A stretch of DNA of 64,000 nucleotides. Source: Blastocatellia bacterium (GTDB lineage: Bacteria > Acidobacteriota > Blastocatellia > UBA7656). The position numbers and the translations under genes are program-made. This document shows, piece after piece, positions 23,525-47,862 of the stretch. The notes beneath the pieces are model-generated. The model saw nothing but the letters and a program-made list of their open reading frames with translations, made no database searches and was not told where the DNA came from. The first letter of the stretch is position 1, and the number at the start of each line of letters is the position of its first letter. The stretch is from assembly GCA_046565505.1 (NCBI GenBank), contig JBKHYJ010000050.1, forward strand, positions 32,415-96,414, written 5' to 3'.

Positions 23525-24277
23525 ATGGGCAAAGCAGCTAGCAAATCCGAGTGCCGCGACATACAGCGACTTTATGCCACTGCTTTGACTGCTCGCGGTA
23601 AGCATCATCGGGCAAAACGCTTAGTTGATTGCGTCTTACAAGACGAAAAAAAAGAAGCCACCGGCTACCGGACTTGGAGATGTCAGCATCGCAACTGTCT
23701 CTTCTGTTGCTGGAAGTATTGGCGAACATTTATTGAAAATTATTTGCGGAAAATTAAGAGGCTTACTCGCAATGATTATCGCCTTAGTTTTCTTACTCTC
23801 ACAATTCCTAATGTACCTTCGCTTAGCCCCGAACTCTACAGAGAGTTGGCTGCTGACCTAAAGAAACTGATGCGCCGATACCCATTTAAGTGTCGAGTAG
23901 TTGGGGCAGTTGCAAGGATTGAAACCGACTTCAACCCTCACTCTCAAGACTTTCATATTCACATTCACATAATACTCATCTACAGCCAATGCATTCCTCA
24001 AAAAGAGATCGTAGAGGCTTGGACCGATGTAATGGGGCCGCATCTGAATGTTTATGAGTTGTCTGATATGCCAGGGCGTGAGAGTAAGCCTTGTGTCGTA
24101 TGGATTGAGAAGATCAAGCCAGGGACACTTAGGAAGATAGTTCGTTATGTTTTCAAATTCGAGCCATTTGAGGATGCAGAGGCGTTTGCCGAATACGATT
24201 GCGCAGTGAGGAACGTCCGGCTTGTTCAATCCTTTGGAGCATTGTTTGAACGCAATAGGAAGGCCCGGAGACATTGA
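23525..24277 (+). CDS. Rolling-circle replication initiator (HUH, Rep_1-like)
   Basis: Cys cluster, motif I FLTLT, motif II HIHIH, motif III YVFK. Confidence 0.78.
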   Translation: MGKAASKSECRDIQRLYATALTARGKHHRAKRLVDCVLQDEKKEATGYRTWRCQHRNCLFCCWKYWRTFIENYLRKIKRLTRNDYRLSFLTLTIPNVPSLSPELYRELAADLKKLMRRYPFKCRVVGAVARIETDFNPHSQDFHIHIHIILIYSQCIPQKEIVEAWTDVMGPHLNVYELSDMPGRESKPCVVWIEKIKPGTLRKIVRYVFKFEPFEDAEAFAEYDCAVRNVRLVQSFGALFERNRKARRH

Positions 24278-24573: not shown

Positions 24574-25130
24574 GCCACTGGTTTGACCAGTGAGACTCGA
24601 AGAGCTTTGAGCGTTGCGGTAGTCCAATAAAGGGGCGCTTATGAATGCCGGAAACTTACCACAGTTCGGCTCATTCTAAATGGAATTGCGTCTACCATCT
24701 TGTGTTCATTCCCAAGTACAGACGTAAAACTTTATTTGGAAGAATTAGAAGAGAGCTTGGACCAATCTTTCACCAGTTGGCTAGGCAGAAAGAATGCAGA
24801 ATCATTGAAGGCCACATAATGCCGGACCACGTTCATATGTGTATTGAGATTCCCCCGAAGCTCGCAGTCTCATCAGTGATTGGATACTTGAAAGGTAAAA
24901 GCGCGATAGAGATAGCTCGGAGGTTCGGAGGGAGACAGCGCAACTTCAACGGAGAATGTTTCTGGGCAAGAGGCTACGCGGTTTCAACAGTAGGGCTTGA
25001 AGTAGAAACAGTACGAGCGTACATCAGGGATCAAGAGGCGGCAGACAAAGAAGGGAGGTTTTAAAGCTAGAATAATCGACCTCTAGTCGAGTTGAAATCC
25101 GCGTTTTGCCTGATCGAAGGCAAGCGGACT
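24572..25130 (+). mobile_element. IS200/IS605-family element, TnpA only (ends approximate)
   Basis: tnpA flanked by hairpins CACTGGT-TTG-ACCAGTG (24576-24592) and TTGCCT...AGGCAA near 25110; no tnpB. Confidence 0.8.
24645..25064 (+). CDS. tnpA: IS200/IS605 Y1 transposase
   Basis: YHLVFIPKYRR, DHVH, LKGKS, FWARGY and YIRDQ motifs. Confidence 0.96.
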   Translation: MPETYHSSAHSKWNCVYHLVFIPKYRRKTLFGRIRRELGPIFHQLARQKECRIIEGHIMPDHVHMCIEIPPKLAVSSVIGYLKGKSAIEIARRFGGRQRNFNGECFWARGYAVSTVGLEVETVRAYIRDQEAADKEGRF

Positions 25131-25355
25131 GAACATGTAATTGGTGTTTGCCAGTTCATTGTCAAATAGCCGAAGGCCATGTTAAGTAAATGACTTGCAA
25201 GATGATAAGTTTCCAGCAGGAGAAGCATGCTTTTTCTAACTCTGACTTTAATGTTCTTCGCTATGCTTGCTCGCCGTGGCTTTAAAAGGCATATAGACGC
25301 ATCTGGATTCAGCTTAAAAGGATCAGTCAAAGACAAAAGAGAACGGAGGCCATCA

Positions 25356-26174
25356 ATGGTGCTCAACGGAAATGATATTGAGAGCAGACGTATAATAGAA
25401 CGCGACAGCAATACAGGCTACCGCGCGGCAAGCTATGATCTAACCGTCGGTAGAATAATCTCATCAGATGGTGAGGAGATTCCTTCTTTATGGCTCAAGC
25501 CCCAGTCCATAGTTAGAGTAATCTCTCATGAAAGGCTAAAGGTGCCTAAAAATGTAGTAGGGTTTGCTACCGTGAAAACATCTCTCTGCGATGAAGGCAT
25601 TCTGCCATTGAATATAGGTATTGTTGATCCAGGATATGAGGGCCCAATATCCACTACACTTTTAAACTTTGGTACAAGAGAGTATTTGATACGACCAGGA
25701 AGAACATTCCTTAGAGTATCATTTCATGAATATCACCAACCTGAACACATTGAACCAATTAAAATAGCTGATGAGGATTATCTTGCAGATAAAAAGATAA
25801 GAGCACAGAATTTTTCTGATACTTTTTTGAATATTTCAACTCTTGAACAAAAGGTAGCTCAAAGGATAGAGTCTGTCGAGCAAATAGTAACCACGGCGAA
25901 GAGCGAAGTAAGAGGATGGATAGGAAGAGGCATAATCATGGCAACGCTCTTATTAACCATCCTACCTTTCTTAGTTACGCTTGGTGTTGATTATACAAGC
26001 CGGACTGGTTGGACCCGCGAGCAATTCAGGTCAGAGGTTATCAACCAAGTTAGACAGGATAAAGAAAGGGAGCTTGAAACGCAGATCAAAGACCTTCAAA
26101 ATGAATTAAGAGAACTAAAGGATAGCATAAAAGCCAGAGCGCCTGAGAATAGTCAGAAAACAGGAGAGCGGTAG
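25356..26174 (+). CDS. dCTP deaminase/dUTPase-fold domain fused to a TM helix and coiled coil
   Basis: ASYDLTVG and GIVDPGYEG motifs; hydrophobic GIIMATLLLTILPFLVTLGV; GGAGG RBS before ATG 25356. Confidence 0.8.
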   Translation: MVLNGNDIESRRIIERDSNTGYRAASYDLTVGRIISSDGEEIPSLWLKPQSIVRVISHERLKVPKNVVGFATVKTSLCDEGILPLNIGIVDPGYEGPISTTLLNFGTREYLIRPGRTFLRVSFHEYHQPEHIEPIKIADEDYLADKKIRAQNFSDTFLNISTLEQKVAQRIESVEQIVTTAKSEVRGWIGRGIIMATLLLTILPFLVTLGVDYTSRTGWTREQFRSEVINQVRQDKERELETQIKDLQNELRELKDSIKARAPENSQKTGER

Positions 26175-26183
26175 AAAAGGAAA

Positions 26184-27143
26184 ATGAAGGCATTTGATTC
26201 AATAGATGAGATACAGCATGCGTTTTTGGATTCACTTTTACGTGATGGGGAAAGCGTTCAGCCTAGGGGAATGCCGACCTTAGAATTGAGCGCTATAACG
26301 TTTAAGCTTTTGAATCCGAGAAAGAGGACTATTACAAACCCGATGCGACGTTGGAGCCTGCCATTAGCTTTAGGTGAATTTTGCTGGCATGTCTCTGGCT
26401 CGAATGAGGTTTCTTTCATTGAGTATTATGCCAAGCGTTGGAGGGATTTTGCAGAGGACGGTTCAACTATACGTGGAAGTTGTTATGGGCACAAAATATT
26501 TAAGCAACCTATCGAAGGGCCGAGTCAGTGGAAAAGAATTATTAAGCTATTGCAAACTGATCGTTACTCTCGCCGAGCTATTTTGAATTTTTCTGACTTC
26601 GATTTACCCGTAGATATTACGCCAAAAGATGTATCATGTGCATGCACACTCCAATTTCTTATACGCTCAGACAAACTCCATGCTTTTGCTTATATGCGCA
26701 GTAACGACGCCATATGGGGTCTACCTTATGATGTGTTCCTGTTTACGATGCTTCAGGAACTTATGGCATTAGAACTTGGCGTAGAACCTGGTTCTTACAA
26801 TCATTTCGCCACATCACTCCACCTTTATGAGCAGCATATTCAACTTGCTAGAAGAATTGTAAGCAGTGGCGTGGATCAGTCTTTTGAAATGAAGCCTATG
26901 ATAGACCATAGGTGGCTAAGTAGATTTCTTACACTTGAATCTAGAATACGGATGGGAGAACGATTAGACTATAAAAAAGAAGTGGCACTCTTACCTGCGT
27001 TCTGGCGAGATTTAGTTGAAGTTCTTTCTTGGTTTAGGTCTACAAAGGAACTAGGCGGTCCGTCAGAAGCTGCTAGTATGATTCCCATTGATTCCCCGTA
27101 TGAGCACATCCTGCGGAATCTCACGGCTAGTTCGCTTATATAA
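26184..27143 (+). CDS. Thymidylate synthase-family protein, probable (d)CMP hydroxymethylase type
   Basis: SRR, catalytic Cys in DVSCACTLQF, MRSND...GLPYD (Asp where ThyA has Asn), SLHLY. Confidence 0.85.
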   Translation: MKAFDSIDEIQHAFLDSLLRDGESVQPRGMPTLELSAITFKLLNPRKRTITNPMRRWSLPLALGEFCWHVSGSNEVSFIEYYAKRWRDFAEDGSTIRGSCYGHKIFKQPIEGPSQWKRIIKLLQTDRYSRRAILNFSDFDLPVDITPKDVSCACTLQFLIRSDKLHAFAYMRSNDAIWGLPYDVFLFTMLQELMALELGVEPGSYNHFATSLHLYEQHIQLARRIVSSGVDQSFEMKPMIDHRWLSRFLTLESRIRMGERLDYKKEVALLPAFWRDLVEVLSWFRSTKELGGPSEAASMIPIDSPYEHILRNLTASSLI

Positions 27144-27169
27144 GATATCGAACCATGTATCAAGTGAGC

Positions 27170-27601
27170 CTACCTGGGGTAATAAGGTATGAGTTCTGTA
27201 GTCCTAAATAATGCTATGGGCCCATCTTTCTTGGCTTGAAATCCCACTCGACCTTGAGGCCCGCCGAATTGATAAATCCAATCTAAACAGCTACCACATG
27301 GCGTAAACCTTTCCCTTTCAGCAACTATAAGAATCCCCGCCAATTCTATATGGCCTGCGGCAACCATACTTGTTATAGCATTTACTTCTGCGTGTACATC
27401 ATGGCTACGGAAAACATGCTCAACGTTACAACCTGCGAAAATTTTGCCATTGGATGACATTACAGCCGCGCCTACTTTTACTTCACCCATAATATACGCC
27501 CGTTCCCTGCATTCCCACGCAGCTTCGGCCAATATATTCCAGTGTTCTTCAGTAAACTCAAATTCTTCGTAAGTCATTTTCTTTTCGTGAAGAGCAGACA
27601 T
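27170..27601 (-). CDS. Cytidine deaminase family protein
   Basis: VGAA, GCNVE, HAE and PCGSC zinc motifs. Confidence 0.9.
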   Translation of the reverse strand: MSALHEKKMTYEEFEFTEEHWNILAEAAWECRERAYIMGEVKVGAAVMSSNGKIFAGCNVEHVFRSHDVHAEVNAITSMVAAGHIELAGILIVAERERFTPCGSCLDWIYQFGGPQGRVGFQAKKDGPIALFRTTELIPYYPR

Positions 27602-27720: not shown

Positions 27721-30700
27721 CTAATTCTCCTGTAGTTTAGCCAGTAGCCCCTCACGACGTAGGGTAAGTACGCGCACAATATGGCTATCTATATTTTCAT
27801 CTGCTACAAGTTCAGTGCAGATCGAGCGCAAAGCTTTCCATAACATAGTGGATTCGTAATTTTCGTATTCTACAGGAATATGGTTTAACAACGATTCAGA
27901 GACGACAACGATTAGTCTTTGCTGCGTACGCGAAAACGCGACATTTGAACGATTCAGATCAAGAATGAACTTTGCACTAGCACCAATGGCTGCTGGATCG
28001 CTTGCTGTCCCTGAAACAAAAACAGTCGGGCGCTCACCTCCTTGTAAGCGTTCAACAGTGTCAATTACATCGACGGATTTGCTGAACCGGGAAAGGCGCG
28101 TTTGTAACAGCGTTCTTTGCGCTCTATGTGGTGTTACTATCGCGATAGAGTTGCTGGGACGCTCACCACCCGCATCCAATATGCGCTCGATAATGTTGAC
28201 CTCGATCTCATTACTTTGTTTTGACTCCCGTTCATTGTGTGAAACTAGATATAACCCCGTTTCACCTTCCCATACACTTTGCCAAGCATTCACACTTTCG
28301 CCGGGGACCAAGGGTAGCGCATTCCCCATTGGTGGTCCTTGCAATTCAATTTCATCCAGACGGTAAAGACGACTGATGAGTTCACGTATTTCGGCGGGAA
28401 GCCTAAAGGTATAACAAAGGCTAGAAAGCAAAATGGCTTCGTCAGGTATTGGAGTGCCCACAGAAATATTTCTTTTTATACGCTGTACGGCTTCGTACGC
28501 ACTAACAAAGGGCTGGTATAGAACAACTGGTGGGCGGTCTTCGCGGTCCCAATCGTGCGCCACTATCGGTGCAAGCTGTCGGTGGTCACCAGTCAGCATA
28601 ATCTCACCGTCAGGTTGCACAAGAGTTGCCAGTGCAAGAAAATCTGGGAAGACCATCATGCTAGCTTCATCAAGAATGAGCAGCGGGACTTGAAAGCCAT
28701 GTTTGAAGTCCGCACTTATATCAAGCTTTCTCACCATCTTTAAAATGGCACCCGTTGTCCCGCCTATAATTAGAATGGCATCCTTTCGCAAGTTCTTCAC
28801 GGTCGAAGCGGCTTTATCAGCAGCAAAATCTTCTATGTTGCCACTTGTAGGATCATATGCGCTGCTGGATTGAACCTTGCTTAGTTTTGTAGGAGGCATA
28901 GTCAATCCATTATCCATCACATACTTAGAAAAATCAGGCAGTAGTTCATCAACCTTTTTGAGTAGAGTGTTAATAGCTGTATGTGTATTCGCTGCTATTA
29001 AGACAATGTCCCTTACTTGGCGTTTCGCCAAAATTCGCAACAAGGTAGCTACGGACGAAGTAGTTGTCTTTCCCGTTCCTGGAGGGCCTTGCAAAAGCTG
29101 GATTTTGGTTGTTAGTCCGTTAACAACAGCTTTTCGCTGATCTTCCTGCAGGTTTTTTCCGGCAGGTGGCACAGGAAGGTTTTGCAACAAGGAGTCGTAA
29201 GTAGCAAGCATTGTTGCTGTCGGGGGGGTGATGGCTGGCACAATCGGTGACTGCGAATTAAACCAATCATAGGCATGGCTTCCTAAACGAGAACTGAGTC
29301 TATCATCAACATGCCCGCGTACAAAATCTGACGGGCTCTCATCAATAGTGGCGTGCGTAATTTTCATTCTGCTTTGGTCTCTAAAATCGGCGCTCTGTAA
29401 AATATATCGTGAAGCGTCCTTGCGCGGAATAACTGAAAGCCTAATCTGGCGGCTTGCCCAATCAACTCCATCAATAATGCAGTTGCTACCATACCTCATT
29501 AGCATACTGAATGTTTGCCCGGTATGCGGATCGGCGTGCGAAACAGTTAGTCTTACAAAATCACCTTCTACGAAACCACATCTAGACTCAAGCGCGCTGT
29601 AATTAATGTCATAACCGGACAAGTCAATGGAAGCCAAAAGTCTATTCGGACTTGTAACTCTAATGTTGGTAATAGGGATCGTTCTACCTTTCGGAACTCT
29701 AGCCGCTGGTGGCACAAGATGAGCGGCGATCCATTCTGTTGTGGCTACATGACGGTCTAGCCGCAAAAAATCTATTGCAGCCCGTGCTGGATCATTTACA
29801 CCCAGTGTGAAACTTTGCAATTCCGCAATGTTCATGAGAGGCTTGGTTATTTCATCATTCTTGAACCGTATGTTCTCTTCTACCCAGCGAAGTGCATGAA
29901 CACGTGCACGAAAATACTCTTCTAAATGCCTAGGTTTCGCAGCTTGATTATAACGTTCAATTGCACTACGTACAGGCGGGATAATTCCCGGTTTACTGGC
30001 ATCCAGTTGCCCCCAATAAGCCCGCCAATAAGGAGCGGTTAGCGAATCACTAAACCGGCTGCGGATTTCAAATTTATATGGTGTCGCGGACTCGCCGTCC
30101 TTAGCCCAAGTGTTATCAGATTTCAAACGGAGGGTGGTTTTAAAATCGAAAATGTCCTGTTCGAATATACGGTCAAGTTCCACATCGCGGCCTGCAATCT
30201 TTCGCACCCAGTGATAACGTCGCCCGTACCACAAAAGAGAAGAAACAACGGCTAGCCCTCTACCCGTCCAACCAAGTGCGTAGCGATGATCAACTTCGTC
30301 TTTAAGCGAAGAATAGATAAGCTGTTCAAGGCTATCCCTACAGCCAAGTAACTCGCGTAAATGCCCTAGCAAACCGGAACCCACACGAGAACAAGCCTCA
30401 ATAAGACGCGCAATTTCAGATTTCGACCAAACATAGAAATGAATCGGTGCGAAATCCGTTGCAGCAACTTCGGCAATAACATCAATTAGCTTGCGCAAGA
30501 AACCTTGAATTATCTCACGCTCAGAGCCAGTATCCTCATCATAACGGCCAGTCCACTGCGAGGACTTGAATTCAATAACTTCATGACTTATAAGCGCTCT
30601 TTTCTCATAAATCGGTTTCTTTGTTGTATAATCAACCCCTGTAACAAACCTTTCTTTTACTTCCGAATCATAAATCCACCTCTTGTTTTGGCTATCCCAA

Positions 30701-31908
30701 TCCGAGTCAGTTTGAAGTTGTCCTTGGCTTTTGGTAACGTGTGCAGAAAGTGCGCCAATGCGGTTCTCAACGTAATCATAATCCACTGAAAGATAAATGC
30801 GGACCAGTGGGATGCCATTAATTATATGCGATGGGACTTGTCCCTTGCCTGCATGTTGGAACGCTTCTACAGGGTAAGTATCGGGATCAACACTTCCACC
30901 AGCCAAGGTTTTACTGCGCGAACGCGCCATTTGCCTTAATTGCACAAGGTTTTCTGTGAAAGTAGGAATAGAACGTAACTGTGAAGCCTGTGCACTCATT
31001 AAGTCTAAGGTTGCGAGTTGATCTATATTTGTTATCCCGCAATTGTGTAAAGAACGCACAGTCGAAGGTTCTAGACTTAACAATTCTAATCGGCGTTCGC
31101 GTCCAGATTCTGGCAAACAATAAATATTGAATACACAGCCATCGCACTTTTCTTCAAGTTGATAACTCAGATCACCAATAGGGGTGTTTACAATCGCTTC
31201 GAATGGACCCTGCTGAGCCAAGAGTAGCTCAATATCTACTTGCTCCGTTTCCAAATCAAACGATGAAATCTCAAGAATAGCCTGTCCTTGGTTGGTGCTT
31301 TCGTCTATGCGCACGACTACACATTCCATATCATCCGGGGTTAGAGTTATTCCATTTACCACAACTGGATAAGCGAGAAGTAATTGTCTAACCAGCATAC
31401 TGTAAGCTGTAACCTGTATGCGATGATAAGTCCGATCGCGGCGGCTGGCTTTGGATTCAACCAAGCGCAAGCGTGGGCGGCCATTGCGCCATAAAATAAG
31501 GACAAAATCTATTACGCCTCGGACATCAAACGCGCCAATACTGCCGCTCACCTCTATTTCCCGACCATAAGCTGTCTGTCCTTCAGTAAGATTTAGAGCG
31601 TTAACCTTCGCCGCAAAGTCAGCCCAATTCGTTTTTTTCTGGTTATTTGATGCAGTTGCCGGTTTACTTGCAAAGGCAGTTGTATCTTTCAGCCCTGAGC
31701 GTAAGAGATATTGCTCCCATTCTTCTTCATGCTTTCTCCCCGCTTCTTCTAAAACCGGATCGATCGAATTGAAAAATCTAACTGAAAAAGGCAGTTTCTT
31801 TGATTCAGCACGGTCGTTGTATTCTAATTTGAAACGACGTTCACAAGAATTATGGCGAATGAATTCACCTATTTCAGTGACCCTAATGCGAGGTCTTCCT
31901 GCTGTCAT
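27721..31908 (-). CDS. Dna2/TM0106-like Fe-S RecB-type nuclease fused to a UPF1-like SF1 helicase
   Basis: N-terminal Cys, IDFV...VESK, QVTAY, CDGC-x5-C; GPPGTGKT, DEASM, GDHRQLAP, TPHRAQ, TVERLQGGE, NVAFSR. Confidence 0.87.
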   Translation of the reverse strand: MTAGRPRIRVTEIGEFIRHNSCERRFKLEYNDRAESKKLPFSVRFFNSIDPVLEEAGRKHEEEWEQYLLRSGLKDTTAFASKPATASNNQKKTNWADFAAKVNALNLTEGQTAYGREIEVSGSIGAFDVRGVIDFVLILWRNGRPRLRLVESKASRRDRTYHRIQVTAYSMLVRQLLLAYPVVVNGITLTPDDMECVVVRIDESTNQGQAILEISSFDLETEQVDIELLLAQQGPFEAIVNTPIGDLSYQLEEKCDGCVFNIYCLPESGRERRLELLSLEPSTVRSLHNCGITNIDQLATLDLMSAQASQLRSIPTFTENLVQLRQMARSRSKTLAGGSVDPDTYPVEAFQHAGKGQVPSHIINGIPLVRIYLSVDYDYVENRIGALSAHVTKSQGQLQTDSDWDSQNKRWIYDSEVKERFVTGVDYTTKKPIYEKRALISHEVIEFKSSQWTGRYDEDTGSEREIIQGFLRKLIDVIAEVAATDFAPIHFYVWSKSEIARLIEACSRVGSGLLGHLRELLGCRDSLEQLIYSSLKDEVDHRYALGWTGRGLAVVSSLLWYGRRYHWVRKIAGRDVELDRIFEQDIFDFKTTLRLKSDNTWAKDGESATPYKFEIRSRFSDSLTAPYWRAYWGQLDASKPGIIPPVRSAIERYNQAAKPRHLEEYFRARVHALRWVEENIRFKNDEITKPLMNIAELQSFTLGVNDPARAAIDFLRLDRHVATTEWIAAHLVPPAARVPKGRTIPITNIRVTSPNRLLASIDLSGYDINYSALESRCGFVEGDFVRLTVSHADPHTGQTFSMLMRYGSNCIIDGVDWASRQIRLSVIPRKDASRYILQSADFRDQSRMKITHATIDESPSDFVRGHVDDRLSSRLGSHAYDWFNSQSPIVPAITPPTATMLATYDSLLQNLPVPPAGKNLQEDQRKAVVNGLTTKIQLLQGPPGTGKTTTSSVATLLRILAKRQVRDIVLIAANTHTAINTLLKKVDELLPDFSKYVMDNGLTMPPTKLSKVQSSSAYDPTSGNIEDFAADKAASTVKNLRKDAILIIGGTTGAILKMVRKLDISADFKHGFQVPLLILDEASMMVFPDFLALATLVQPDGEIMLTGDHRQLAPIVAHDWDREDRPPVVLYQPFVSAYEAVQRIKRNISVGTPIPDEAILLSSLCYTFRLPAEIRELISRLYRLDEIELQGPPMGNALPLVPGESVNAWQSVWEGETGLYLVSHNERESKQSNEIEVNIIERILDAGGERPSNSIAIVTPHRAQRTLLQTRLSRFSKSVDVIDTVERLQGGERPTVFVSGTASDPAAIGASAKFILDLNRSNVAFSRTQQRLIVVVSESLLNHIPVEYENYESTMLWKALRSICTELVADENIDSHIVRVLTLRREGLLAKLQEN

Positions 31909-31935: not shown

Positions 31936-33366
31936 CTATTCAGCACGGAACGAAACTGATGGCGGTACGATCCGTACTGTAGAAAGATTGCTTCTTTGAA
32001 TAAAGAGGGCTTCACTAGCTTGCTTTTCAGCACTTGCTAGGAGTGAAGGGGTTTCGAAGAGCCTTTTGGCTATTTCTTTGACTACCTCAACATGGACGGC
32101 ATTGCCCAAAGCCTTAAATGCTGCTGTGCGTGATTCAGGAAGAATATGATCATCGCTAAAGCCTTGTAACCGTAATGCTTCTATGCGGGTTATAAAACGG
32201 CGTTCTGGTCCTAGTATCGGAATCTGCGTATTCGTCATAGAAACGAGTGTAGGAATTGTCGAGTACCGTTTTACACGTAACCCAGAAGGCCGGAACTGGA
32301 GGACATGATCCCACAAATCCCTTTTCTCACCATTACAATTCCATTCAAATTTTCTGAGTGATAAAGGAAAGGTGCGAAGTTTCGTAATCCATTTCTTGGT
32401 AAAGAAGCGGCGGTGTTTAGTGAGCCATTCGCGGTTCTGCCTTATGAATTGGATTTTCCACTTTGGGAACTTCTCTTCCTTCGACTGAGCATAGCTTGGA
32501 AGCAGTTTGAACAATTGTTCGTGTATGAGATCATGAACATAGTCAGGATGTGCATTTAAGGCCAATTTTAAGGCTCCTGTGGTCATCAGGTAGGGTGTGT
32601 GTTCTTCAAATCTGTATCTAGCATCTAACTCATCACACCATATAGGAAAAGAGGGAAGCTCAACTTCATGAGATATGCGCTTTAGCAACAGATTCCAATG
32701 TTCAATGCATTCCAGTTGCTGTTGAGAGAGTTTTGATTCCTCTCGGTGCATCTTTTTTAATTCGCGCGAGCGCTGGACAATGGTGGCGAGAGTTGTTTCG
32801 CGATAGCGATCAATATCGGGAAAAAGATTTTCAGGAAGTGGTTTGCCACTTCGGGCGACTATATAAAACCTCTCCCTTGTGTGCGGATAGCCTAGATGAT
32901 GCGGTGAAAGCAATCCGTTCCCACCACTGTTAACGTGCTCAGTACCTTTAACACAGTAGTCCAAATTTTCGAGTGCTTGTTTAACTACTTTCCAGGTACG
33001 TCCATTGTCATGCCTTTGAAAGTTACCTACGTTTTCAAGGATTATATACTCAGGCTTGTGCTTTTTCAGAATCTTTATGATTTCATGAAAAAGCGTCCCA
33101 TGTATCTGGTCATCCATACCTTTTTGAGAGCCACTTTTTGAGAAGGGCTGACAGGGAAAACCCGCACATAGGATATCGTGTGCAGGCACTTCATTTCTGT
33201 GCTTACGGATATCACCCACACTCTTGCTCGCCGTGGCAGGAAAGTTCTGACAGTAGAGTTCTCGAAGCTCATCTTGAATTTCTGAAGCGAATACACATTC
33301 GTGGCCGAGTTGGCTTAAAGCAACATGAAAGCCGCCGAGTCCGGCAAAAAGATCAACAAATCTCAT
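31936..33366 (-). CDS. dcm: DNA (cytosine-5)-methyltransferase
   Basis: FAGLGG, GFPCQ, ENV, RER, RLQGF and GNAV; AAGGAGG RBS before ATG 33366. Confidence 0.95.
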   Translation of the reverse strand: MRFVDLFAGLGGFHVALSQLGHECVFASEIQDELRELYCQNFPATASKSVGDIRKHRNEVPAHDILCAGFPCQPFSKSGSQKGMDDQIHGTLFHEIIKILKKHKPEYIILENVGNFQRHDNGRTWKVVKQALENLDYCVKGTEHVNSGGNGLLSPHHLGYPHTRERFYIVARSGKPLPENLFPDIDRYRETTLATIVQRSRELKKMHREESKLSQQQLECIEHWNLLLKRISHEVELPSFPIWCDELDARYRFEEHTPYLMTTGALKLALNAHPDYVHDLIHEQLFKLLPSYAQSKEEKFPKWKIQFIRQNREWLTKHRRFFTKKWITKLRTFPLSLRKFEWNCNGEKRDLWDHVLQFRPSGLRVKRYSTIPTLVSMTNTQIPILGPERRFITRIEALRLQGFSDDHILPESRTAAFKALGNAVHVEVVKEIAKRLFETPSLLASAEKQASEALFIQRSNLSTVRIVPPSVSFRAE

Positions 33367-33388
33367 ACTCCTCCTTAGGCTTTCCGTT

Positions 33389-33862
33389 TCAACTTGTAAG
33401 TGCCTTGTTTTTATGTCGGCGAGCGTCAACCGCACTCTTTATTAAAGCAGCCGCAGCCTCTGGGTCTCGGAGAATATCGGTTTCCCAGAGACGAATAACA
33501 TGCCAGCCAGCTTCTTGCAACCTGGATGTATTTCGTATGTCGCGCTCAATGTTACTTGCTATCTTGGCAGACCAATATGTTGCGTTTGTACCTTGCTCAA
33601 GCTTAGACTTGAGCGTCTGCCATTTGCGACCGTGCCAAAAGTCACCATCGCAAAATACAACTACCCGCACGCCTGAAAAGACAATGTCTGGTTTTCCTGG
33701 TAAAGTCTCTACATTCTTTCTAAATCGAAGGCCAAGCCGCCATAGTTCGCGCCGCAGTAATACTTCATGTTTAGTATCGCGCCGCCGATTACTACGCTTG
33801 ACCTGGGAACTCGCAGCCGATGCAGGCTTAAATCCAGTGAAGGAGGGGACCTTCCTTGCCAT
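33389..33862 (-). CDS. vsr: Very short patch repair endonuclease
   Basis: DTKHE, LPGKPDI, DGDFWHG and IRLWE motifs; adjacent to the C5 methyltransferase. Confidence 0.95.
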   Translation of the reverse strand: MARKVPSFTGFKPASAASSQVKRSNRRRDTKHEVLLRRELWRLGLRFRKNVETLPGKPDIVFSGVRVVVFCDGDFWHGRKWQTLKSKLEQGTNATYWSAKIASNIERDIRNTSRLQEAGWHVIRLWETDILRDPEAAAALIKSAVDARRHKNKALTS

Positions 33863-34203
33863 TCCTAACCCTGTGTGAGTCTCATCACGGGGCAAAGTGT
33901 ATAATGATTATTGGAAGTTGCCAAGATATTTCAGCAAGTTTAGATGTCCTTCTTAAACAACCCTGTCCCAATTCTGATTTAAGGACGGGGGAGAACTAGT
34001 AGTTGTGCATTTGTTGGATAAGTTAACGGGCAATCATGTACGGACTGAAAACGGACTCAGTAATAGATGAGTCGAATCTCCCGGTGGCCTTAGACTGTGC
34101 TTTTGAGGGGCGTCTCACCATGAAGCGCGCATGATAGACTTATAGAAAGAGCAGCAAAGCAAATTTTTCACGTTTTTCCCGCAGTCGCGCCCTTGCTGAA
34201 TTC

Positions 34204-34557: not shown

Positions 34558-34941
34558 TCACTTCCTTTTTGCGGCTGCAATCAGGCTCTCAAGCTTGCGC
34601 TCTGGCGTTACCAGCAGAACAATGACTGCCAACTCCACTCGCTTGAAGAAAGCGGCTATACGCTTGCTACTATTCACGCGCTCGCGCTTGAGAGTGGAGT
34701 ATGTAGCTGAAGTCTCACCGCTAACCCATTCGAGTTCTGACAGCAAGTAATCGCCCTTTCGCCTATCACACGCAGAGCATGAGGCAGCCAGGTTGAAAGT
34801 CGCGTTCGTTCCCCCTCTCGATGTAGGGATGATGTGATCTATCACAAGCTTTGACGAGTCGAACACTTTTCCGCACAGGTAGCAGGTTGACTTGTCTCGC
34901 TCAATTATCTCATCTCGCCTCAACTGGCCGGGGCCGCTCAT
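34558..34941 (-). CDS. HNH endonuclease
   Basis: RD..TCYLCG...IDHIIP..RGG...NL...CSACDRRKG. Confidence 0.85.
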   Translation of the reverse strand: MSGPGQLRRDEIIERDKSTCYLCGKVFDSSKLVIDHIIPTSRGGTNATFNLAASCSACDRRKGDYLLSELEWVSGETSATYSTLKRERVNSSKRIAAFFKRVELAVIVLLVTPERKLESLIAAAKRK

Positions 34942-35043: not shown

Positions 35044-35517
35044 TTAGCTTTCATTTGCGCCCCCTTCCGCTTGGCTGCGCTGTGCGCGCACCATTTCTCT
35101 GTAGGATACGACAGCATAGCAACCCGCACGGCTGAACCGAAAAGCGGCGTAGAGCAGGTCATCAACTTCCCTATACGCGATGTAAGTTTCTCCTCGTTCA
35201 ATCGCGCTGATGATTGCTTCTGTTAGCTGCCTGTAGGCTCTCCGCTTCGATTCTTTAGCTATCTTACGAACCGCTTCAATGTCGCCTGCGTGTGCAGCGG
35301 TGGATAAAGCGTCGAGCCTGCCTGCAAGGGTGTCTAACTCATTAAGGCCACATTTGCCGATAAGATTGTCTCGAACGTCTTGAGGTATGAGCGGACGCAA
35401 TTCGACTTGCCCCGCTTGATTATTTCGGGTCTTTTGTGCTGGCATGATGATACCTTTCAGACATGCAGCGATGCATGCCGGAAGATGGGCAGGGTGATAC
35501 TTTGTAAGGGTGTCCAC
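35044..35517 (-). CDS. Hypothetical phage-like protein
   Basis: Helical ORF in the leftward operon; start uncertain. Confidence 0.5.
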   Translation of the reverse strand: MDTLTKYHPAHLPACIAACLKGIIMPAQKTRNNQAGQVELRPLIPQDVRDNLIGKCGLNELDTLAGRLDALSTAAHAGDIEAVRKIAKESKRRAYRQLTEAIISAIERGETYIAYREVDDLLYAAFRFSRAGCYAVVSYREMVRAQRSQAEGGANES

Positions 35518-35597
35518 CCTGCCCTAGCCATATATGGACTTCTAGATATTTCTTCATTTCTGAAGATTTACCCGAAAGTCAGCTTTGTGAATGGCTT

Positions 35598-36722
35598 CTA
35601 CTTCCCGAAAGGTGATGGCGGGGCGTGCGGTGTGAATGAGTATCTGAGGCGTGATTGAATTGTAATGATCGTATCTAGCGAACGGCGGAATTGATGACAC
35701 AGCGGATCATTGTTACCGCGTAATAGTGACGGCTCGCCATGAATATTCCTAGTAGCGCGGGCCTGCTTTTCCTCCCTCTTCTCTTCAGCATGGACCTGTG
35801 GCACTGCAATGATGATCGGTTGCGCCTCCTGCTCTGCTAGGTCCGCTGCAACATCATTTCTGGTTTCCACCCATTCGTGATAGGTGGCCGCGAGCGGGGA
35901 GGCACAGGCTAAGGCTGAGAGCTTAGCGGCTTCCCGTAGCCTACCTACGGCATGAAGGTTTACAGCGTAGTTGTTGAGGCAATCGAAATAGAGGCGCGGA
36001 TTGATTCGAGCGAAGGCGCGCACAATCGGCGCGATTTGCTCAAGCAATGCTATAGCGGCATGGTAGTCACCCGCTAAGTTATAATTAAACGCGACCGCCC
36101 TATTAGTTTCTATGCGGGTCCAGTAGTCGGCTTCTGCAGTCTTGAGGGTTTGAGAGTAGAAGGCTAATTCCGTTGCAATCTTGCCTTGATAGCCGCTTAC
36201 TGCACCGAGAGCTAAAAGAGCTTTTGCTTTGAATTGAGCCGGGGCGTAATCAGCAGCGAACTCGAAAAGCCTCTCCGCTTGCTCAAGATTCCCTTTGCCT
36301 AGATTCTGTTGTGCTAATCCCAGATAGTAAGCCGCAATCGGTTTATAATTCGTGTGGTCGGCGAGTGCCTGGCTAATGAGTGCAAGTGTGTCTAGCTGTC
36401 TTGTGTCGTATGCGCCTTGCGCGGCTCGAATCAGGCGCTTTGCTGATACATCGTTCTGGAGGTTTGAACCGATGAAGAGAGTAACATTGTTTTGTGCAAG
36501 CGTGATTCTTTGCTTATGCCTGTCATTAATTGCATTGGCTGGGCAGACCCGGCCAAGCGGCGCATACTGCGAGCCGGTCGATAACGTGACTTGCTTTGAA
36601 GGCGATGGCGGCGCGACCGGCGCAACGGCAGGGCCAGCGGGCGAGACTGAACAGACCCCTACCGCATCGCCAACCGGCGATGAGTTGAACGGTCTATTTG
36701 TTTTCGCGCTGGCTATCTTCAT
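35598..36722 (-). CDS. TPR-like helical repeat protein (start uncertain)
   Basis: TPR-like units AAYYLGLAQ..GNLEQAERLFE, ALLALGAV, AGDYHAAIALLE and LNNYAVNL...GRLREA. Confidence 0.8.
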   Translation of the reverse strand: MKIASAKTNRPFNSSPVGDAVGVCSVSPAGPAVAPVAPPSPSKQVTLSTGSQYAPLGRVCPANAINDRHKQRITLAQNNVTLFIGSNLQNDVSAKRLIRAAQGAYDTRQLDTLALISQALADHTNYKPIAAYYLGLAQQNLGKGNLEQAERLFEFAADYAPAQFKAKALLALGAVSGYQGKIATELAFYSQTLKTAEADYWTRIETNRAVAFNYNLAGDYHAAIALLEQIAPIVRAFARINPRLYFDCLNNYAVNLHAVGRLREAAKLSALACASPLAATYHEWVETRNDVAADLAEQEAQPIIIAVPQVHAEEKREEKQARATRNIHGEPSLLRGNNDPLCHQFRRSLDTIITIQSRLRYSFTPHAPPSPFGK

Positions 36723-36744
36723 GCTCTACAGGCTCAAGGTGTGA
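36472..36744 (+). CDS. Small exported/membrane peptide, antisense to the 5' end of the TPR gene
   Basis: GGAGG at 36458-36462, signal peptide ending ALA, Cys pair, G/T/P linker, C-terminal hydrophobic helix and basic tail. Confidence 0.75.
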   Translation: MKRVTLFCASVILCLCLSLIALAGQTRPSGAYCEPVDNVTCFEGDGGATGATAGPAGETEQTPTASPTGDELNGLFVFALAIFMLYRLKV

Positions 36745-37305: not shown

Positions 37306-37680
37306 TCACTGTGTTAGTCGAGCGATTGCCAGATCGCGTTCAAGCTGGATAGTCCGCTTGATCCCTTCAGGCACTACACTGTTAAAGCTTGCCGCTATCT
37401 GCTCGGCCTCGCCTTCGCTAGTGGCTAGCTGTATGCGCCAGATCGTGAGCACTGCGCCGACGAAGCAAGCCCATGTGTGTTTGCAGATCATGCGGCGGCT
37501 CATCGAATCCGGGCAGGTGCAGCCGGTGGTTGACTCCACAATGTAATGCGCGTCCCCTCGCTCGCTCCTGACAACATATGTGCCGTTCCCGATGTGCCGA
37601 ACAAGGTTTGACTCATAGACTCGCATCCCGCGCTCTATGCGGTCTGCCGTAACACCTGATGTTAAAGCTATGCTGTTCAT
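37306..37680 (-). CDS. SWIM zinc finger protein
   Basis: YIV...CTCPD...CKH; AAGGA RBS. Confidence 0.82.
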   Translation of the reverse strand: MNSIALTSGVTADRIERGMRVYESNLVRHIGNGTYVVRSERGDAHYIVESTTGCTCPDSMSRRMICKHTWACFVGAVLTIWRIQLATSEGEAEQIAASFNSVVPEGIKRTIQLERDLAIARLTQ

Positions 37681-37729
37681 ATCGGTTTCCTTCTGTGAGT
37701 TGGTATAGCAGCCGCGCCCCTGCTCTGTT

Positions 37730-38116
37730 CTAGTATTTCTCTCCCAGCTTGCGGTGATAAGTCACCCATTCACCCGGCCCATACCCTTCATGACAGTAGC
37801 GGTGCTCGCTTGTCACTTCGCGGCACTCATCCCTAAAGCAATCAACCGCCCTGCCGCACGTTATACATTCGTGTGAGTGCGGCCCGCTGACCGGCACTCG
37901 CGCCGCTTTCTCCGCTTCTGCTCTGTGGTTGAGTATGCCGTTAAGCTCCCACACTAATGTTTGAGCCTCTTCTAGGGTTAAAGTATCCAGCGTTTTGTTG
38001 AATCGCTCTTGCGCTAATGCGCTCGCATCGCATTCTGCGTACTCGGCATTGACTCTAAGCTGAGCGAGCCAGCTCGTCCCCTTTGCTAATTGCTGCTGTT
38101 GTTTTGTTGCGGTCAT
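37730..38116 (-). CDS. Hypothetical protein with Cys/His cluster
   Basis: GAGGAG RBS; HSHECITC...C....C......YCH. Confidence 0.65.
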   Translation of the reverse strand: MTATKQQQQLAKGTSWLAQLRVNAEYAECDASALAQERFNKTLDTLTLEEAQTLVWELNGILNHRAEAEKAARVPVSGPHSHECITCGRAVDCFRDECREVTSEHRYCHEGYGPGEWVTYHRKLGEKY

Positions 38117-38166
38117 AATCTCCTCATCAGGCGAAGCGGGCCGCGATTGTGCGGCCCTCGCTTCTG

Positions 38167-38433
38167 TCAGTGCGCGTAGTGCATCAAGTAGTAGGCGCGG
38201 TCGAATTCATACGCTGGATGTGTGCGAACATTCAAAAGGTTGAATGACCAGGCGCGGGTTATCGCGCTCATCTTCCCCCAAGCTATGAAGTCGCCTTTAT
38301 TGCTATGGTGATTTCTGTGGCAATGCTTATGAGTAGGAGCGACATCGACGCCGCCCCTGCTCTTGTAGATCGGGTGATGGTATTCAACCTCATCCTGCGC
38401 GGTGATCGGCTGATGGCAGAGATAGCAAATCAT
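38167..38433 (-). CDS. Small HNH-like protein
   Basis: CYLCHQPI...EYHHP..KSRGG...HKHCH; ATGA overlap with the upstream gene. Confidence 0.75.
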   Translation of the reverse strand: MICYLCHQPITAQDEVEYHHPIYKSRGGVDVAPTHKHCHRNHHSNKGDFIAWGKMSAITRAWSFNLLNVRTHPAYEFDRAYYLMHYAH

Positions 38434-38684
38434 ATCTCTATCCCCTGATAGCGCCCGTTAGACTTCGGCTCCGGCTTGTGGTAGACCTTGCCGTCTGCCG
38501 TCGCTATGAAGTTTTCAGACTCATTGACCACAGCCGATTCGAGCGATGCGGACCATTCGGCGTAGCCTTCAAACTCTGCCGCATCTTCGGCCATCAGGGT
38601 CATAACTTCGTCGTATTCGCTCTCGCTTACTGAGTAGGTCTCTTCGGAGTAGACATTGGAATCGAAATTGTTGTAGTCTGTCAT
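38430..38684 (-). CDS. Small acidic protein, first gene of the leftward operon
   Basis: AAAGGA RBS; about 19 D/E versus 4 K/R in 84 aa. Confidence 0.72.
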   Translation of the reverse strand: MTDYNNFDSNVYSEETYSVSESEYDEVMTLMAEDAAEFEGYAEWSASLESAVVNESENFIATADGKVYHKPEPKSNGRYQGIEI

Positions 38685-38957: not shown

Positions 38958-39106
38958 TTTGTAGTAATGTGAAATATTTTGGTTTATAATGAGGCTAATT
39001 AGTAAAGGAGTCTACAAGTATGATTGGTGTAGCAGCAATAGATACTAGCTCAAATGGCGCAGATTATTTGTCCAATTCAGACGGGTATGTTACGGTTGCG
39101 CTCGAT

Positions 39107-39385
39107 ATGGCTAAAGTGAACGTGTCGCTGCGCATCCGTGAGCTTGCTGAGCCTGTGGGCATCAATAATCCTTACGAGTTGGCTAAGAGGACGGGCATGC
39201 CTTATGAGTCTTGTCGCTTGATATGGAGTGAAAAGACTCGCCGTATTGATCTTGGCACTATCGAGAAGCTGTGCGAAGTATTTGGCGTGATTCCAGGGCA
39301 ACTTTTTAAGTATGAGTCTGAGTCTGACGCATCAAGCGAATCAACTGAAAAGGCAAAAAAGAGTGGCAGCAGGCGGAAGGAATAG
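39107..39385 (+). CDS. Cro/C1-type HTH repressor
   Basis: ELAKRTGMPYESCRLIW...IDLGTIEKLCEVFGVIPGQLF; divergent from the early operon. Confidence 0.87.
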   Translation: MAKVNVSLRIRELAEPVGINNPYELAKRTGMPYESCRLIWSEKTRRIDLGTIEKLCEVFGVIPGQLFKYESESDASSESTEKAKKSGSRRKE

Positions 39386-40133: not shown

Positions 40134-41315
40134 TTATTCTGGCACCTTTGGGCTTACTTTCCTTCCATCTTCTGTTCTCAAGTGCTCGCTGATTGTATCT
40201 TTTAGTTGGAATCTAAGGTCTTCCAGATTTTCAGGAGTATACATAATGGTACGTATATCTCTAATATCAAATGGAAGTGGGCTGTTATCTGCTGATAGTT
40301 GAATGACTGGTTTATTAAGCACATGGGCCAATCCTAGTTCGTAGAATACATTCGGATTCATTCCCGTCAAGTCAGCCACTACAAGACGGGCATACCGAAT
40401 ATCGTTAAATATCTGATTCATAATCCTGCCGGTTAACTTTACCTCATCAGCTCGAACAGGAATCAGTCCGTTATCGTATATGGCATCTTTTATTGCTATG
40501 TTCCACACATCTGGTCTAACAATCTCTGAACTGAAGGGCATAACAACAAAAACATAGTCTTCTTCGTATCGAGGAGCATGAGTGAGCTTAAAATAATCAA
40601 ACTCTGCAACAGTGAGAGGAATAGCTTTTCTCATGATCCCAAAATAGCCTTTATGTTGATCGTCAAAGATTGAAGAGGTCGTAACATCTACTGGCACCCT
40701 CTGACCATTCGAGTGGAGGCGCACTGTGTTGTAGCGGCAGTGTGATCTAGGCTTGGCTCTGAGTTCTCCTAGAATTTCATCAACCTCTTTACATAAATCA
40801 TCTGGCACCAAGAATTTTCTAATGTCTCTTCCACGTACCTCTTCTCGGTTGAACCCAAAGAGCTTTTCTGCCCCAGCGTTCCATAATACTACTCGACCTG
40901 ATGGATCGAGTATTCCGATTGCGTCCCAGGTAAGCTCAACAAACTTAGAGAAGTTAATCCACTCCCTTTCCTCCCTTAACGCCTCCGTTGCACGATTTAC
41001 TATCCTATAGAACCAAATGGCAGAAAAAAGGACTAATCCTTTGATTGATGTGACGAACCAAGGATGTCGCAAAAACTCTTCCAGAGGTTTGTGAACGACA
41101 CGCGCAATATTTACGATGGCCCAATATATCGAATCTATAACGAGGGTGGTAGCAACAATCCGAAAGGCCTTCTGAATTTGAGAATAACTTGTTGAGTCAA
41201 TAATTGGTTTCCGAGCTTTCAGCACCTCCCCAGTTCTGCTCCATACGACGAGCCAAAACACAACAAGTAGAATATAAACAATAATCTGGGCATATTCAGC
41301 AATAGTATATGACAT
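40134..41315 (-). CDS. Three TM helices + PAS + nucleoside 2-deoxyribosyltransferase-like (TIR/NDT) domain
   Basis: PAS DAI..LD..G....WNAGAEKLFG; FVVMPF, RAD, ADLTGMNPNVFYELG and LPFD motifs. Confidence 0.85.
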   Translation of the reverse strand: MSYTIAEYAQIIVYILLVVFWLVVWSRTGEVLKARKPIIDSTSYSQIQKAFRIVATTLVIDSIYWAIVNIARVVHKPLEEFLRHPWFVTSIKGLVLFSAIWFYRIVNRATEALREEREWINFSKFVELTWDAIGILDPSGRVVLWNAGAEKLFGFNREEVRGRDIRKFLVPDDLCKEVDEILGELRAKPRSHCRYNTVRLHSNGQRVPVDVTTSSIFDDQHKGYFGIMRKAIPLTVAEFDYFKLTHAPRYEEDYVFVVMPFSSEIVRPDVWNIAIKDAIYDNGLIPVRADEVKLTGRIMNQIFNDIRYARLVVADLTGMNPNVFYELGLAHVLNKPVIQLSADNSPLPFDIRDIRTIMYTPENLEDLRFQLKDTISEHLRTEDGRKVSPKVPE

Positions 41316-41394: not shown

Positions 41395-42033
41395 CTAAGG
41401 CTTGTGCAACCCTTTTTGTATAATGAATTCGCGACCTTTACCCACATCAATATTAATGGGCACTCCTTTATTGCATAGTGGGCAACCGTCTTCATCCCAA
41501 GTATCTAATGAAAGCTCAAGGAGGCTACATAGCTTTGGTGGATTGCCAACTTGATCAATGGTAACGTCGCCACGATTGCATAGAGCAGCAGCTCCTATTA
41601 CTATTCCACCATTGATACGAACAGCCTGGATCACCTCTTTAAGCGACGCACCTGTAGTTAGTACATCCTCAACAATGAGTACTCGTTTATCTTTAAGTAG
41701 TTGATCATAACCTCGACGAAAGATGAAGGATCCTTGCTCTCCTTTTTCAGCGTAAATAGCAAGTACAATATGGCCTTTCGTCGATAAGTGATAAGCAACC
41801 CATTGTGAAAGTATCACACCACCGATTGCTGGTGCCGCCACGATTTCTATCGCATCTTTAGTAAATTGCGCTGCAATTTCTTGGCAGAGTGAGGAAACCG
41901 CACGCGTATTGGGATAGATTGCATCTTTATTAATATACGTACTCCCATGCTTGCCTGATGTATATACAACATGTGTATCTCTGATTATGGCTTTATGTTG
42001 TTCTAAAACTCTTACTGCGTCTATATTTTTCAT
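41395..42033 (-). CDS. pyrE: Orotate PRTase-like protein (island copy)
   Basis: HVVYTSGKHGSTY, PAIGG, FRRGY, VEDVLTTGAS and CPLC. Confidence 0.8.
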   Translation of the reverse strand: MKNIDAVRVLEQHKAIIRDTHVVYTSGKHGSTYINKDAIYPNTRAVSSLCQEIAAQFTKDAIEIVAAPAIGGVILSQWVAYHLSTKGHIVLAIYAEKGEQGSFIFRRGYDQLLKDKRVLIVEDVLTTGASLKEVIQAVRINGGIVIGAAALCNRGDVTIDQVGNPPKLCSLLELSLDTWDEDGCPLCNKGVPINIDVGKGREFIIQKGLHKP

Positions 42034-47319: not shown

Positions 47320-47862
47320 CTATTGTGTGCCAACTTTCTTAAAGAGCATTGCTTCGAGCTTATGCGTAGAAGCCTTCTGCATTGATGGCAGAATGTGAGA
47401 GTAAACATCCATAGTCATTCTGATACTGGCATGACCTAAGCGTTCCGCAACCACCTTTGGGTTTTCATTTGCAGCTAGAAGTAAGGTTGCACAAGAATGT
47501 CTTAGATAATACAGCCTCAGTGACTCGGATAATCCAGCACGCTTGAGAATTGGCTTGAAGTGACGACGAACAATGTCTCGCTGCAATATAGGTCTCCCCA
47601 CACCTGTAGCGAAGACCAGATCATGGTCTTGATACTTCGGTCCCGCCTTTAACCTCTCTTCTAATTGCCTGCGCTTGTATTCAACAACGCTATAAACTAA
47701 CGAGCCAGGTATGGTGATGCTTCGCCTGCTTCTAGGTGTCTTAGGCTCGGTGAAGGACCAGCCGATTTTACTCCTCCAGATAACTACCCGCTGGACTGTG
47801 ACAATACCGTTCTGAAAATCAATACCTTTCCACTGTTTCCTGAGAGCCTTAGCACTTTTCAC
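47320..47862 (-). pseudogene. C-terminal remnant of a second tyrosine integrase
   Basis: PKT, LRHS, LGH and VYSH present, N-terminal half missing; own tandem TTGTGTGCC repeats at 47312-47331. Confidence 0.85.

Follow-up and report, generated by a model that had tools for sequence, protein, structure and literature searches.

Head-to-head overlapping genes for a tetratricopeptide-repeat protein and a small exported protein in one family of Blastocatellia

A stretch of 64,000 nucleotides from contig JBKHYJ010000050.1 of a Blastocatellia bacterium (assembly GCA_046565505.1, positions 32,415 to 96,414 of the forward strand), hereafter the window, carries a gene for a tetratricopeptide-repeat (TPR) protein whose 5' part is antisense to a gene for a small exported protein. 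Comparison with related sequences indicates that the two genes are a real, paired and conserved cassette, present in many copies in one family of this diderm group, and that they form a conserved functional pair is in our judgement very probable. The explanation that we consider best, and on balance probable, is a head-to-head overlapping regulatory cassette in which the two genes would be expressed antagonistically and, in the subclass to which the window copy belongs, a gene downstream of the TPR gene would come under arrest-type control as well.

The small-protein gene occupies 36472-36744 on the + strand, stop codon included, and was recognised from the listing of open reading frames (ORFs) and by a family-profile match; it encodes an exported, membrane-anchored protein of 90 amino acids. 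Its frame is open from 36352 to 36744, and the start conserved in the family is the ATG at 36472, preceded at a distance of 9 nt by a GGAGG ribosome-binding site (RBS; 36458-36462) at the place where the family consensus reads AAAGGAGA. On the - strand, the TPR gene (35598-36722, 374 amino acids) begins at an ATG that is the sole in-frame ATG, GTG or TTG upstream of the TPR core. The core, about residues 90-305 (35808-36455), is the part conserved in the family, and the matches of relatives begin at about residue 94; residues 1-84 form an N-terminal extension (36471-36722) that is antisense to the small gene and predicted by the structure model to be disordered. Both frames are open over the same 251 nt (36472-36722), and their third codon positions coincide. 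An earlier note, made from the sequence of the window, had described a 90-amino-acid + strand gene with its own GGAGG inside the open 5' frame of a - strand TPR gene, and both descriptions hold, the small gene being antisense to the first 251 nt of the TPR gene.

Conservation of the gene pair and its interlocked start signals

Antisense ORFs of more than 80 amino acids are common in the window, so that ORF length alone is not significant. When synonymous codons were drawn from the codon usage of the genome with the peptide held fixed, the - strand frame reached its observed open length in 54% of the trials run on the window (P 0.54) and in 94% of those on its relative in locus L002. Openness of the - frame over the small gene is thus expected by chance, and it is the conservation of the + strand ORF in relatives that lifts the case above it.

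In its own genome the TPR protein is matched 19 times, and it is present in 23 of 24 other genomes of the same Blastocatellia family. Nearly all relatives that reach the N-terminus (29-40% identical) have, in the same place and frame relation, an antisense ORF of 72-146 amino acids with a homologous product, and a profile built from these ORFs found 19 copies in this genome, every one of them beside an opposite-strand TPR match. After the exclusion of 10 genes cut by sequence ends, the 133 unique TPR matches left 123 that could be tested, and a homologous ORF was found at the same place, on the same strand and in the same frame in 110 of them (18 of 18 in this genome). The check proposed in the earlier note, a search of TPR homologues for a conserved antisense ORF with a signal peptide, therefore came out in favour of the pair. 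The 13 misses consist of one divergent antisense copy, nine loci with no small gene and three with a co-oriented small gene directly downstream of the TPR gene (L057 3332-3658, L113 5183-5509, L044 3289-3501); these last three link the TPR and small genes independently of the overlap. That the + strand ORF of the window is a chance antisense frame without a product would fit the abundance of such ORFs and the not improbable dual openness, but it is contradicted by the homologous ORFs, by the conserved start, RBS and product features and by the stronger constraint on the + frame, and we consider it extremely improbable.

The distribution of the cassette follows the family closely. A search of whole genomes with the peptide alignment was positive in 22 of 24 family genomes and in none of 16 outside the family, where the TPR protein gave weak matches only, in two genomes (E 3.5e-4 and 5.6e-4); a phylum-wide sample of 200 further genomes yielded just two marginal hits in the peptide search. 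The copy numbers of the TPR gene and the small gene track each other from genome to genome (19/19, 24/25, 15/13 and 14/15). Copies are scattered on many contigs, often at contig ends, with up to 25 per genome, and by these comparisons the cassette is a chromosomal family and not a phage module. Tandem cassettes occur, as in L109 (TPR matches at 1037-1846, 2606-3262 and 4001-4681) and on contig C132 of genome G000, which has two. Many copies lie within about 1 kb of a contig end, and near-identical copies may break assemblies. A literature search that included main texts, supplements aside, found no paper or described family matching the cassette.

The start signals of the two genes are interlocked. 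An alignment of 63 short-form modules anchored on the peptide ATG gave a + strand consensus of cTGATAgAAT, an extended -10-like box, about 28-36 nt 5' of the ATG, followed by AAAGGAGA at -12 to -5 and then the ATG. The window has a weakened version of this box, TGATACAT, at 36444-36451. Downstream, positions +24 to +32 of the + strand read TTGCTCATG, which places a - strand ATG at +31; of 81 unique modules, 55 have ATG and 9 have GTG as the - strand codon at this position (64/81). This start is preceded by GGAAAGGA, the antisense of the LSFP codons of the signal peptide. The overlap is 31 nt in most copies, and the TPR frame continues open beyond the peptide ATG in 70 of 74 modules. TPR N-termini read from the +31 start follow the pattern MSKQT..LF..SP....FYQ.LL, in which SP is the antisense of the peptide's RBS and FYQ that of its -10-like box. 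In a typical copy the -10-like box, RBS and ATG of the small gene thus fall within the first ~25 TPR codons, and the ATG or GTG of the TPR gene, with its purine-rich RBS, falls within codons 10-17 of the small gene's signal peptide; as judged from the alignment, the start signals of each gene are coding sequence of the other. The earlier note had supposed that the overlap locks the partners together and allows antisense control. Antisense coupling is indeed built into the family, at the 110 loci counted above; its use for mutual regulation we infer, with moderate confidence.

Selection on the overlap was assessed from single-base codon differences. Over peptide codons 1-25 these comprise 8933 synonymous and 4446 non-synonymous differences in the + frame and 6001 and 6527 in the - frame, for non-synonymous/synonymous ratios of 0.50 and 1.09, respectively; upstream of the peptide ATG the ratios are 1.78 and 0.97. 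As far as such counts indicate, the asymmetry of constraint follows the expected direction. In the EDYPGE subfamily the Asp-Tyr codons force a stop in the - frame, so that the TPR start there does not lie beyond +118.

The two gene products

The small proteins of the family are 72-115 amino acids long. Short forms of about 75-90 residues start with MKRLL and a hydrophobic core and continue with LCLSFPAFAGHT, and long forms of about 105-115 residues have some 20 additional residues between the signal peptide and AGHT. Common to all forms are H-x6-9-CxCGxPGCx(C/E)D, a Ser/Pro/Asp/Gln-rich linker that is the most variable part of the protein in the family alignment, and a hydrophobic helix ending in RLKA, RYKA or RLRA. 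The structure model of a canonical small protein has just two helices, 3-15 and 60-79. The window protein is laid out as the earlier note had it, with a signal peptide, a linker, a membrane segment and a basic tail: MKR is followed by a 20-residue hydrophobic stretch up to ALA, with GQ next, and then by the Cys-containing GQTRPSGAYCEPVDNVTC, a Gly/Ala/Pro/Thr-rich linker, a C-terminal hydrophobic helix and RLKV. It matched the family profile with E 1e-09 and 7.1e-16 in two profile searches and is the most divergent copy of its genome (E 1e-09); in the alignment Q replaces the conserved His, and two of the four Cys are gone.

Pfam, NCBIfam, PHROG and PADLOC hold no family for the small protein. 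The sole recurring weak matches are to the ROK family and NanK, and they fall precisely on the His/Cys stretch (Pfam E 0.005, below the cut-off). The zinc site of ROK proteins is made of a His and CxCGxxGCx(E/D), as described in passages of PMC5458393, and the family consensus, AGHT..G...CxCGxPGCx(C/E)D, has the same pattern as the site in these kinases and repressors. Unlike them, the small exported proteins have just this motif of ~25 residues and no ROK fold, and the window copy lacks three of the four ligand positions and, with them, the motif itself. We infer from the sequences that the protein exposes a small knuckle of zinc type on the outer side of the cytoplasmic membrane, where its C-terminal anchor holds it. 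The sorting-signal models of NCBIfam (PEP-CTERM and relatives) were reached by none of 20 peptides, the best being VPDSG-CTERM at E 0.09 in one, and the only exosortase-family match in this genome is below threshold (23.1 against a cut-off of 25.7 bits). A protein atlas gave leads for a canonical small protein only below 0.9, to small proteins with LPXTG-like anchors.

As a single sequence the TPR protein matches Pfam TPR_12 below the cut-off (E 5.9e-05); a profile of 83 relatives matches consensus TPR proteins with E 9e-26. In the AlphaFold model, residues 90-305 have a predicted local distance difference test score (pLDDT) above 96 and consist entirely of helical repeats; confidence is low after residue 310, and residues 1-66 are disordered (pLDDT 41-67), with no secondary structure before residue 67. 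From the canonical start the core would lie about 20 residues from the N-terminus. Neither an effector domain, such as a helix-turn-helix (HTH) or a Rap-type bundle, was found in Pfam, NCBIfam or the model, nor, in the model, an N-terminal hydrophobic segment on this protein of 374 residues (~300 from the canonical start). Apart from a generic TPR match, neither PADLOC nor PHROGs returned anything for the TPR or the small protein. The core resembles the peptide receptors of the RRNPP group in fold: PlcR in complex with PapR and DNA scores Z 18.3 (root-mean-square deviation 2.8 A over 201 residues), Rap 17.1, NprR 16.6 and phage Rap about 16. Unrelated TPR proteins (APC subunits, TSK, OGT) score equally, at Z 17.7-18.7, and since the two groups tie, the fold gives no specific assignment. 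A predicted complex of TPR residues 74-374 with the small protein scored 0.00, controls not having been run, and is evidence neither way. In 34 of 87 testable modules, for example L033, an XRE-type HTH gene of about 150 codons lies convergently beyond the 3' end of the TPR gene; it is absent from the window.

The end of the TPR gene and its surroundings

The window TPR protein ends in ...TPHAPPSPFGK, and the HAPP codons (35616-35627), a RAPP-like motif, stand 5 residues before the stop. Within the family, 40 of 158 proteins carry [RH][AG]PP at a distance of 2-8 residues from their end (RAPP 17, HAPP 11, RGPP 7, HGPP 5), against 13 occurrences in the remaining 59,642 residues of those 158 proteins; the others mostly end in an acidic helical segment. 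According to passages of PMC12992588, proteomes exclude RAPP and RGPP; the two motifs are concentrated close to the C-termini of small proteins, secretory or membrane-bound, and are a mark of arrest peptides encoded upstream of a variety of genes. HAPP and HGPP are counted among the RAPP-like motifs in the corresponding part of PMC10987492, where changing H to A in HAPP impaired arrest in an in vitro translation system based on B. subtilis. We also considered whether the conserved TPR tail is a repeated DNA element and rejected this, as no other copy exists in the genome or the loci.

In each of the ten motif-bearing loci that were fetched, a co-directional ORF follows at a distance of 37-141 nt, and the convergent HTH gene, present in 41 of 111 others, is missing. 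The leaders of these RAPP-type loci resemble one another despite their differing downstream genes, which fall into at least three unrelated groups, so that one common downstream gene could not be defined; the gene in the window matches none of them (phmmer). This gene (35044-35445, - strand) encodes a conserved hypothetical protein of 133 amino acids and is the candidate regulated output. Its start is backed by homologues of 131-133 amino acids, and its product has seven relatives at 78-86% identity (eight proteins listed, its own included) and no Pfam domain. The longer ORF of this gene had no match in Pfam, PHROG or PADLOC. Near several cassettes, 3' of RAPP-type TPR genes or upstream on the TPR strand, we noticed a family of ~170 amino acids (..PE.EI.D..G..), at L099 3120-3632, at L018 368-892 and in L009, L068, L128 and L123; it too leaves the downstream gene of the window unmatched by phmmer.

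The RNA between HAPP and the downstream start (35436-35630, - strand) has a minimum free energy of -70.1 kcal/mol (z -5.23), and none of 200 shuffles was as stable. In the predicted fold a leader hairpin with perfect 10-bp arms, GGGCAGGGUG and CACCCUGCCC, occupies 35487-35524, with a similar layout in the leaders of other RAPP-type loci, and a second one of 7-8 bp lies at 35461-35479. The downstream RBS, GAAAGG (35453-35458), is 7 nt before the ATG (35443-35445). The last TPR codons (ACCUUUCGGGAAG, 35601-35613), those just after HAPP (ACCUUUC GGGAAG), are predicted to pair with this GAAAGG and with CUUCC at 35480-35484, a pairing that spans the two hairpins; with a ribosome placed at HAPP, 8 of the 12 bases of the Shine-Dalgarno window pair into its footprint. 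Among eight loci folded in silico, the RBS window is predicted to pair best with the motif footprint in the window copy, L096, L068 and L123, and in L009 the pairing is nearly tied with another window (3.82 against 3.59). The partners co-change between loci, as CCUUUC/GAAAGG, GCUCUCC/GGAGAGC and CCUCC/GGAGG. Rfam returned no family for leaders or loci, and one chance match (E 0.81).

The window copy lies in an island of low GC content (54% against 60% for the genome) flanked by fragments of an integrase gene (20787-22025 and 47320-47862). Between them are genes for Rep_1 (23525-24277), an IS200 transposase (24645-25064), dCTP-deaminase-like, thymidylate-synthase-like (ThyA-like) and dCMP deaminase proteins (25227-27601), which give the stretch the look of a nucleotide-modification island, and a helicase-nuclease of 1395 amino acids on the - strand (27721-31908), with an N-terminal PD-(D/E)XK nuclease, a C-terminal superfamily-1 helicase and MkoA as best PADLOC match (E 3.3e-33). 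These are followed by Dcm (31936-33435), Vsr (33389-33895) and HNH (34558-34941). On the far side of the TPR gene stands a - strand gene for a PAS-domain protein (40134-41315) whose C-terminal part matches a TIR-type effector (PADLOC E 6.3e-11) and nucleoside 2-deoxyribosyltransferase models; it adjoins a gene for a phosphoribosyltransferase-domain protein (41395-42033). Four small - strand genes upstream of the TPR gene (37306-38684) have no family match, those for 88 and 124 amino acids having Cys/His patterns, and a Cro/C1-type HTH gene lies divergently at 39020-39385. The earlier note had spoken of a phage-like operon; the mobile and defence-type character of the island bears this out in part, and no phage structural genes were seen in it.

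Readings of the cassette and their meaning

In the regulatory cassette that we favour, transcribing or translating one gene would hinder the other, through promoter occlusion, fully complementary 5' ends of the mRNAs and masked start sites, and the two products would be made either/or, or in a controlled ratio. This would resemble prgQ/prgX of Enterococcus faecalis pCF10, where a peptide-precursor gene faces a receptor gene, with complementary 5' parts, and where, in the relevant passages of PMC3181467, the transcripts converge over 223 nt with transcriptional interference and reciprocal antisense control. The example also shows that the earlier note went too far in holding that the genes of known receptor and peptide pairs are co-oriented. 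Here, unlike in prgQ/prgX, the coding sequences and start signals themselves overlap, the small protein is anchored and has a His/Cys motif, the host is a diderm Acidobacterium, and the TPR protein is without a DNA-binding domain. PrgX has such a domain.

In the subclass of the window, a ribosome paused at HAPP would cover the pyrimidine-rich codons that otherwise pair with the downstream RBS, and the state of the nascent TPR protein would set the translation of the 133-amino-acid gene, as in control of the secM-secA type. RAPP-like arrest peptides (SecM, ApdA/ApdP, the 'RQH family' and CruR) likewise have, in the passages that describe them, [RH][AG]PP a few residues before the stop and a co-directional gene whose RBS is predicted to be masked by a pairing that a paused ribosome would open. 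We regard such control of the downstream gene by C-terminal arrest as quite possible, though with somewhat less assurance than the antagonism of the two overlapping genes.

Several observations weigh against this explanation. A sigma-70 consensus scan of the window found no promoter for the small gene or the TPR gene, the -10-like box included, and no promoter of the TPR gene was identified; a search of sequencing runs returned no RNA run with the window stretch, and the one run that holds it is a DNA run, possibly its source. By eye, no clear RBS precedes the TPR start at 36722, and the TPR gene of this copy may be in decay or yield little protein. The extension of 84 residues may be functionless, as judged from a - frame whose openness is chance-like and which is less constrained than the + frame, and the peptide of the window is, by its sequence, without the conserved His and two Cys. 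As to the arrest, the motif is found in only about a quarter of family proteins, and with longer context the pairing is absent or weak in three of eight loci (0.26 expected pairs in L016, 0.23 in L002 and 2.2 in L128). The known RAPP-type arrest peptides are small secretory or membrane proteins, those described in the cited passages having signal peptides or membrane segments, whereas the TPR protein is cytoplasmic and has ~300-374 residues. Pro codons are complementary to G-rich RBSs, so that RNA pairing alone could explain part of the motif.

The start of the window copy is itself divergent. Its codon at +31 is ACG, and the only ATG, GTG or TTG in frame upstream of the core is the ATG at 36722 (+250), so that, the canonical start being lost, the first codon translated must lie 251 nt into the sequence antisense to the small gene; if the TPR protein of the window is made, the model suggests a disordered head of 84 residues encoded antisense to the small gene. 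It is conceivable, and we rate it as rather unlikely, that all that counts is the small gene and a TPR gene with a short start, the long frame being a by-product, in a copy that is decaying or uses a non-canonical start, so that there would be no meaningful overlap of 251 nt. The ACG agrees with this, as do the chance-like openness and weaker constraint of the - frame, the disorder of residues 1-66 and the in-frame stops that many family copies carry; signs of decay are the degeneracy of the peptide motif, the weakening of the -10-like box and the absence of a clear RBS at 36722. The intact TPR core, HAPP tail, leader and downstream gene point the other way. The subfamily also keeps the long frame: in five of five members known at DNA level (the window's relatives being L002, L003, L016 and L096) the ATG is retained at +244 to +271 with the frame open, and eight of the nine database relatives P0002-P0010 are called from the equivalent Met, the ninth, P0006, being a short form without the N-terminal part. 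The closest relatives of the window TPR protein are 79-53% identical over the full length; DNA scans of genomes and metagenomes returned a best relative at 39% and not these. Summed over 10 pairs of the window subfamily, differences number 163 synonymous and 127 non-synonymous in the + frame and 129 and 147 in the - frame, and each of the 10 pairs has its higher amino-acid identity in the + frame.

The earlier note had proposed a peptide-signalling pair of RRNPP or arbitrium type. Its pairing stands, a TPR gene with an exported small gene adjacent at 110 of 123 loci, and in this, as in the many diverged paralogous pairs per genome, the cassette is like Rap/Phr, PlcR/PapR, NprR/NprX and AimR/AimP. 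The small protein would then be exported and cut, and a fragment of its linker would be taken up again by the cell and, by binding in the TPR groove, switch the activity of the TPR protein; the linker is the most variable part, as expected of a signal that determines specificity, PlcR, Rap and NprR are among the best fold matches, and the convergent XRE-type HTH gene could supply a DNA-binding partner. Against this stand the equal fold scores of unrelated TPR proteins and a TPR protein without HTH or Rap-type N-terminal domain. The antisense overlap and the small protein itself, of 72-115 amino acids, anchored and with a metal-site-like motif, are likewise unlike RRNPP systems and their propeptides. 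The host is moreover a diderm, and a term search of the main text of the RRNPP_detector paper did not find the word Acidobacteria. We therefore hold direct sensing of the peptide by the TPR protein to be unlikely, and the full RRNPP scheme to be improbable. No more probable to us is that the small protein is an anchored periplasmic factor binding metal or taking part in redox, that the TPR protein is its cytoplasmic chaperone, assembly or targeting factor and that the overlap balances their production. TPR proteins are commonly chaperones or adaptors, and the match of H-x6-9-CxCGxxGCx(E/D/C) to the ROK zinc site (in the passages of PMC5458393 noted above), the weak ROK/NanK matches on that stretch, the signal peptide and the C-terminal anchor are as this would have it; the cytoplasmic tail of the small protein, however, is only ~4 residues long, and the 19 diverged copies per genome and the RAPP-like tails are left unexplained.

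The regulatory cassette could also be joined to peptide sensing in a bolder form, which we regard as decidedly speculative. The TPR protein would be a receptor read out on the ribosome: the antisense-encoded exported protein, as pre-protein, tail or fragment, would bind the nascent TPR protein and set the duration of the RAPP-like arrest, and with it downstream translation, and the overlap would lock the receptor to the gene of its ligand and make the pair bistable. If this were true, diderm soil bacteria would possess a form of peptide sensing whose output is translational and which involves no DNA-binding domain.

If the overlapping cassette works as proposed, two protein-coding genes would have been kept head-to-head over hundreds of diverged copies, each holding the start signals of the other, and the family would offer a clean system for dual-coding constraint and antisense switches. 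Arrest of the RAPP type, a feature of small secretory leader peptides, would then reach to a repeat protein that is folded and cytoplasmic. That a TPR protein is paired with an exported small protein outside the Firmicutes bears on whether signalling of the RRNPP kind exists in diderms, and the cassette is abundant in a widespread group of soil Acidobacteria, where a single genome can hold as many as 25 copies.

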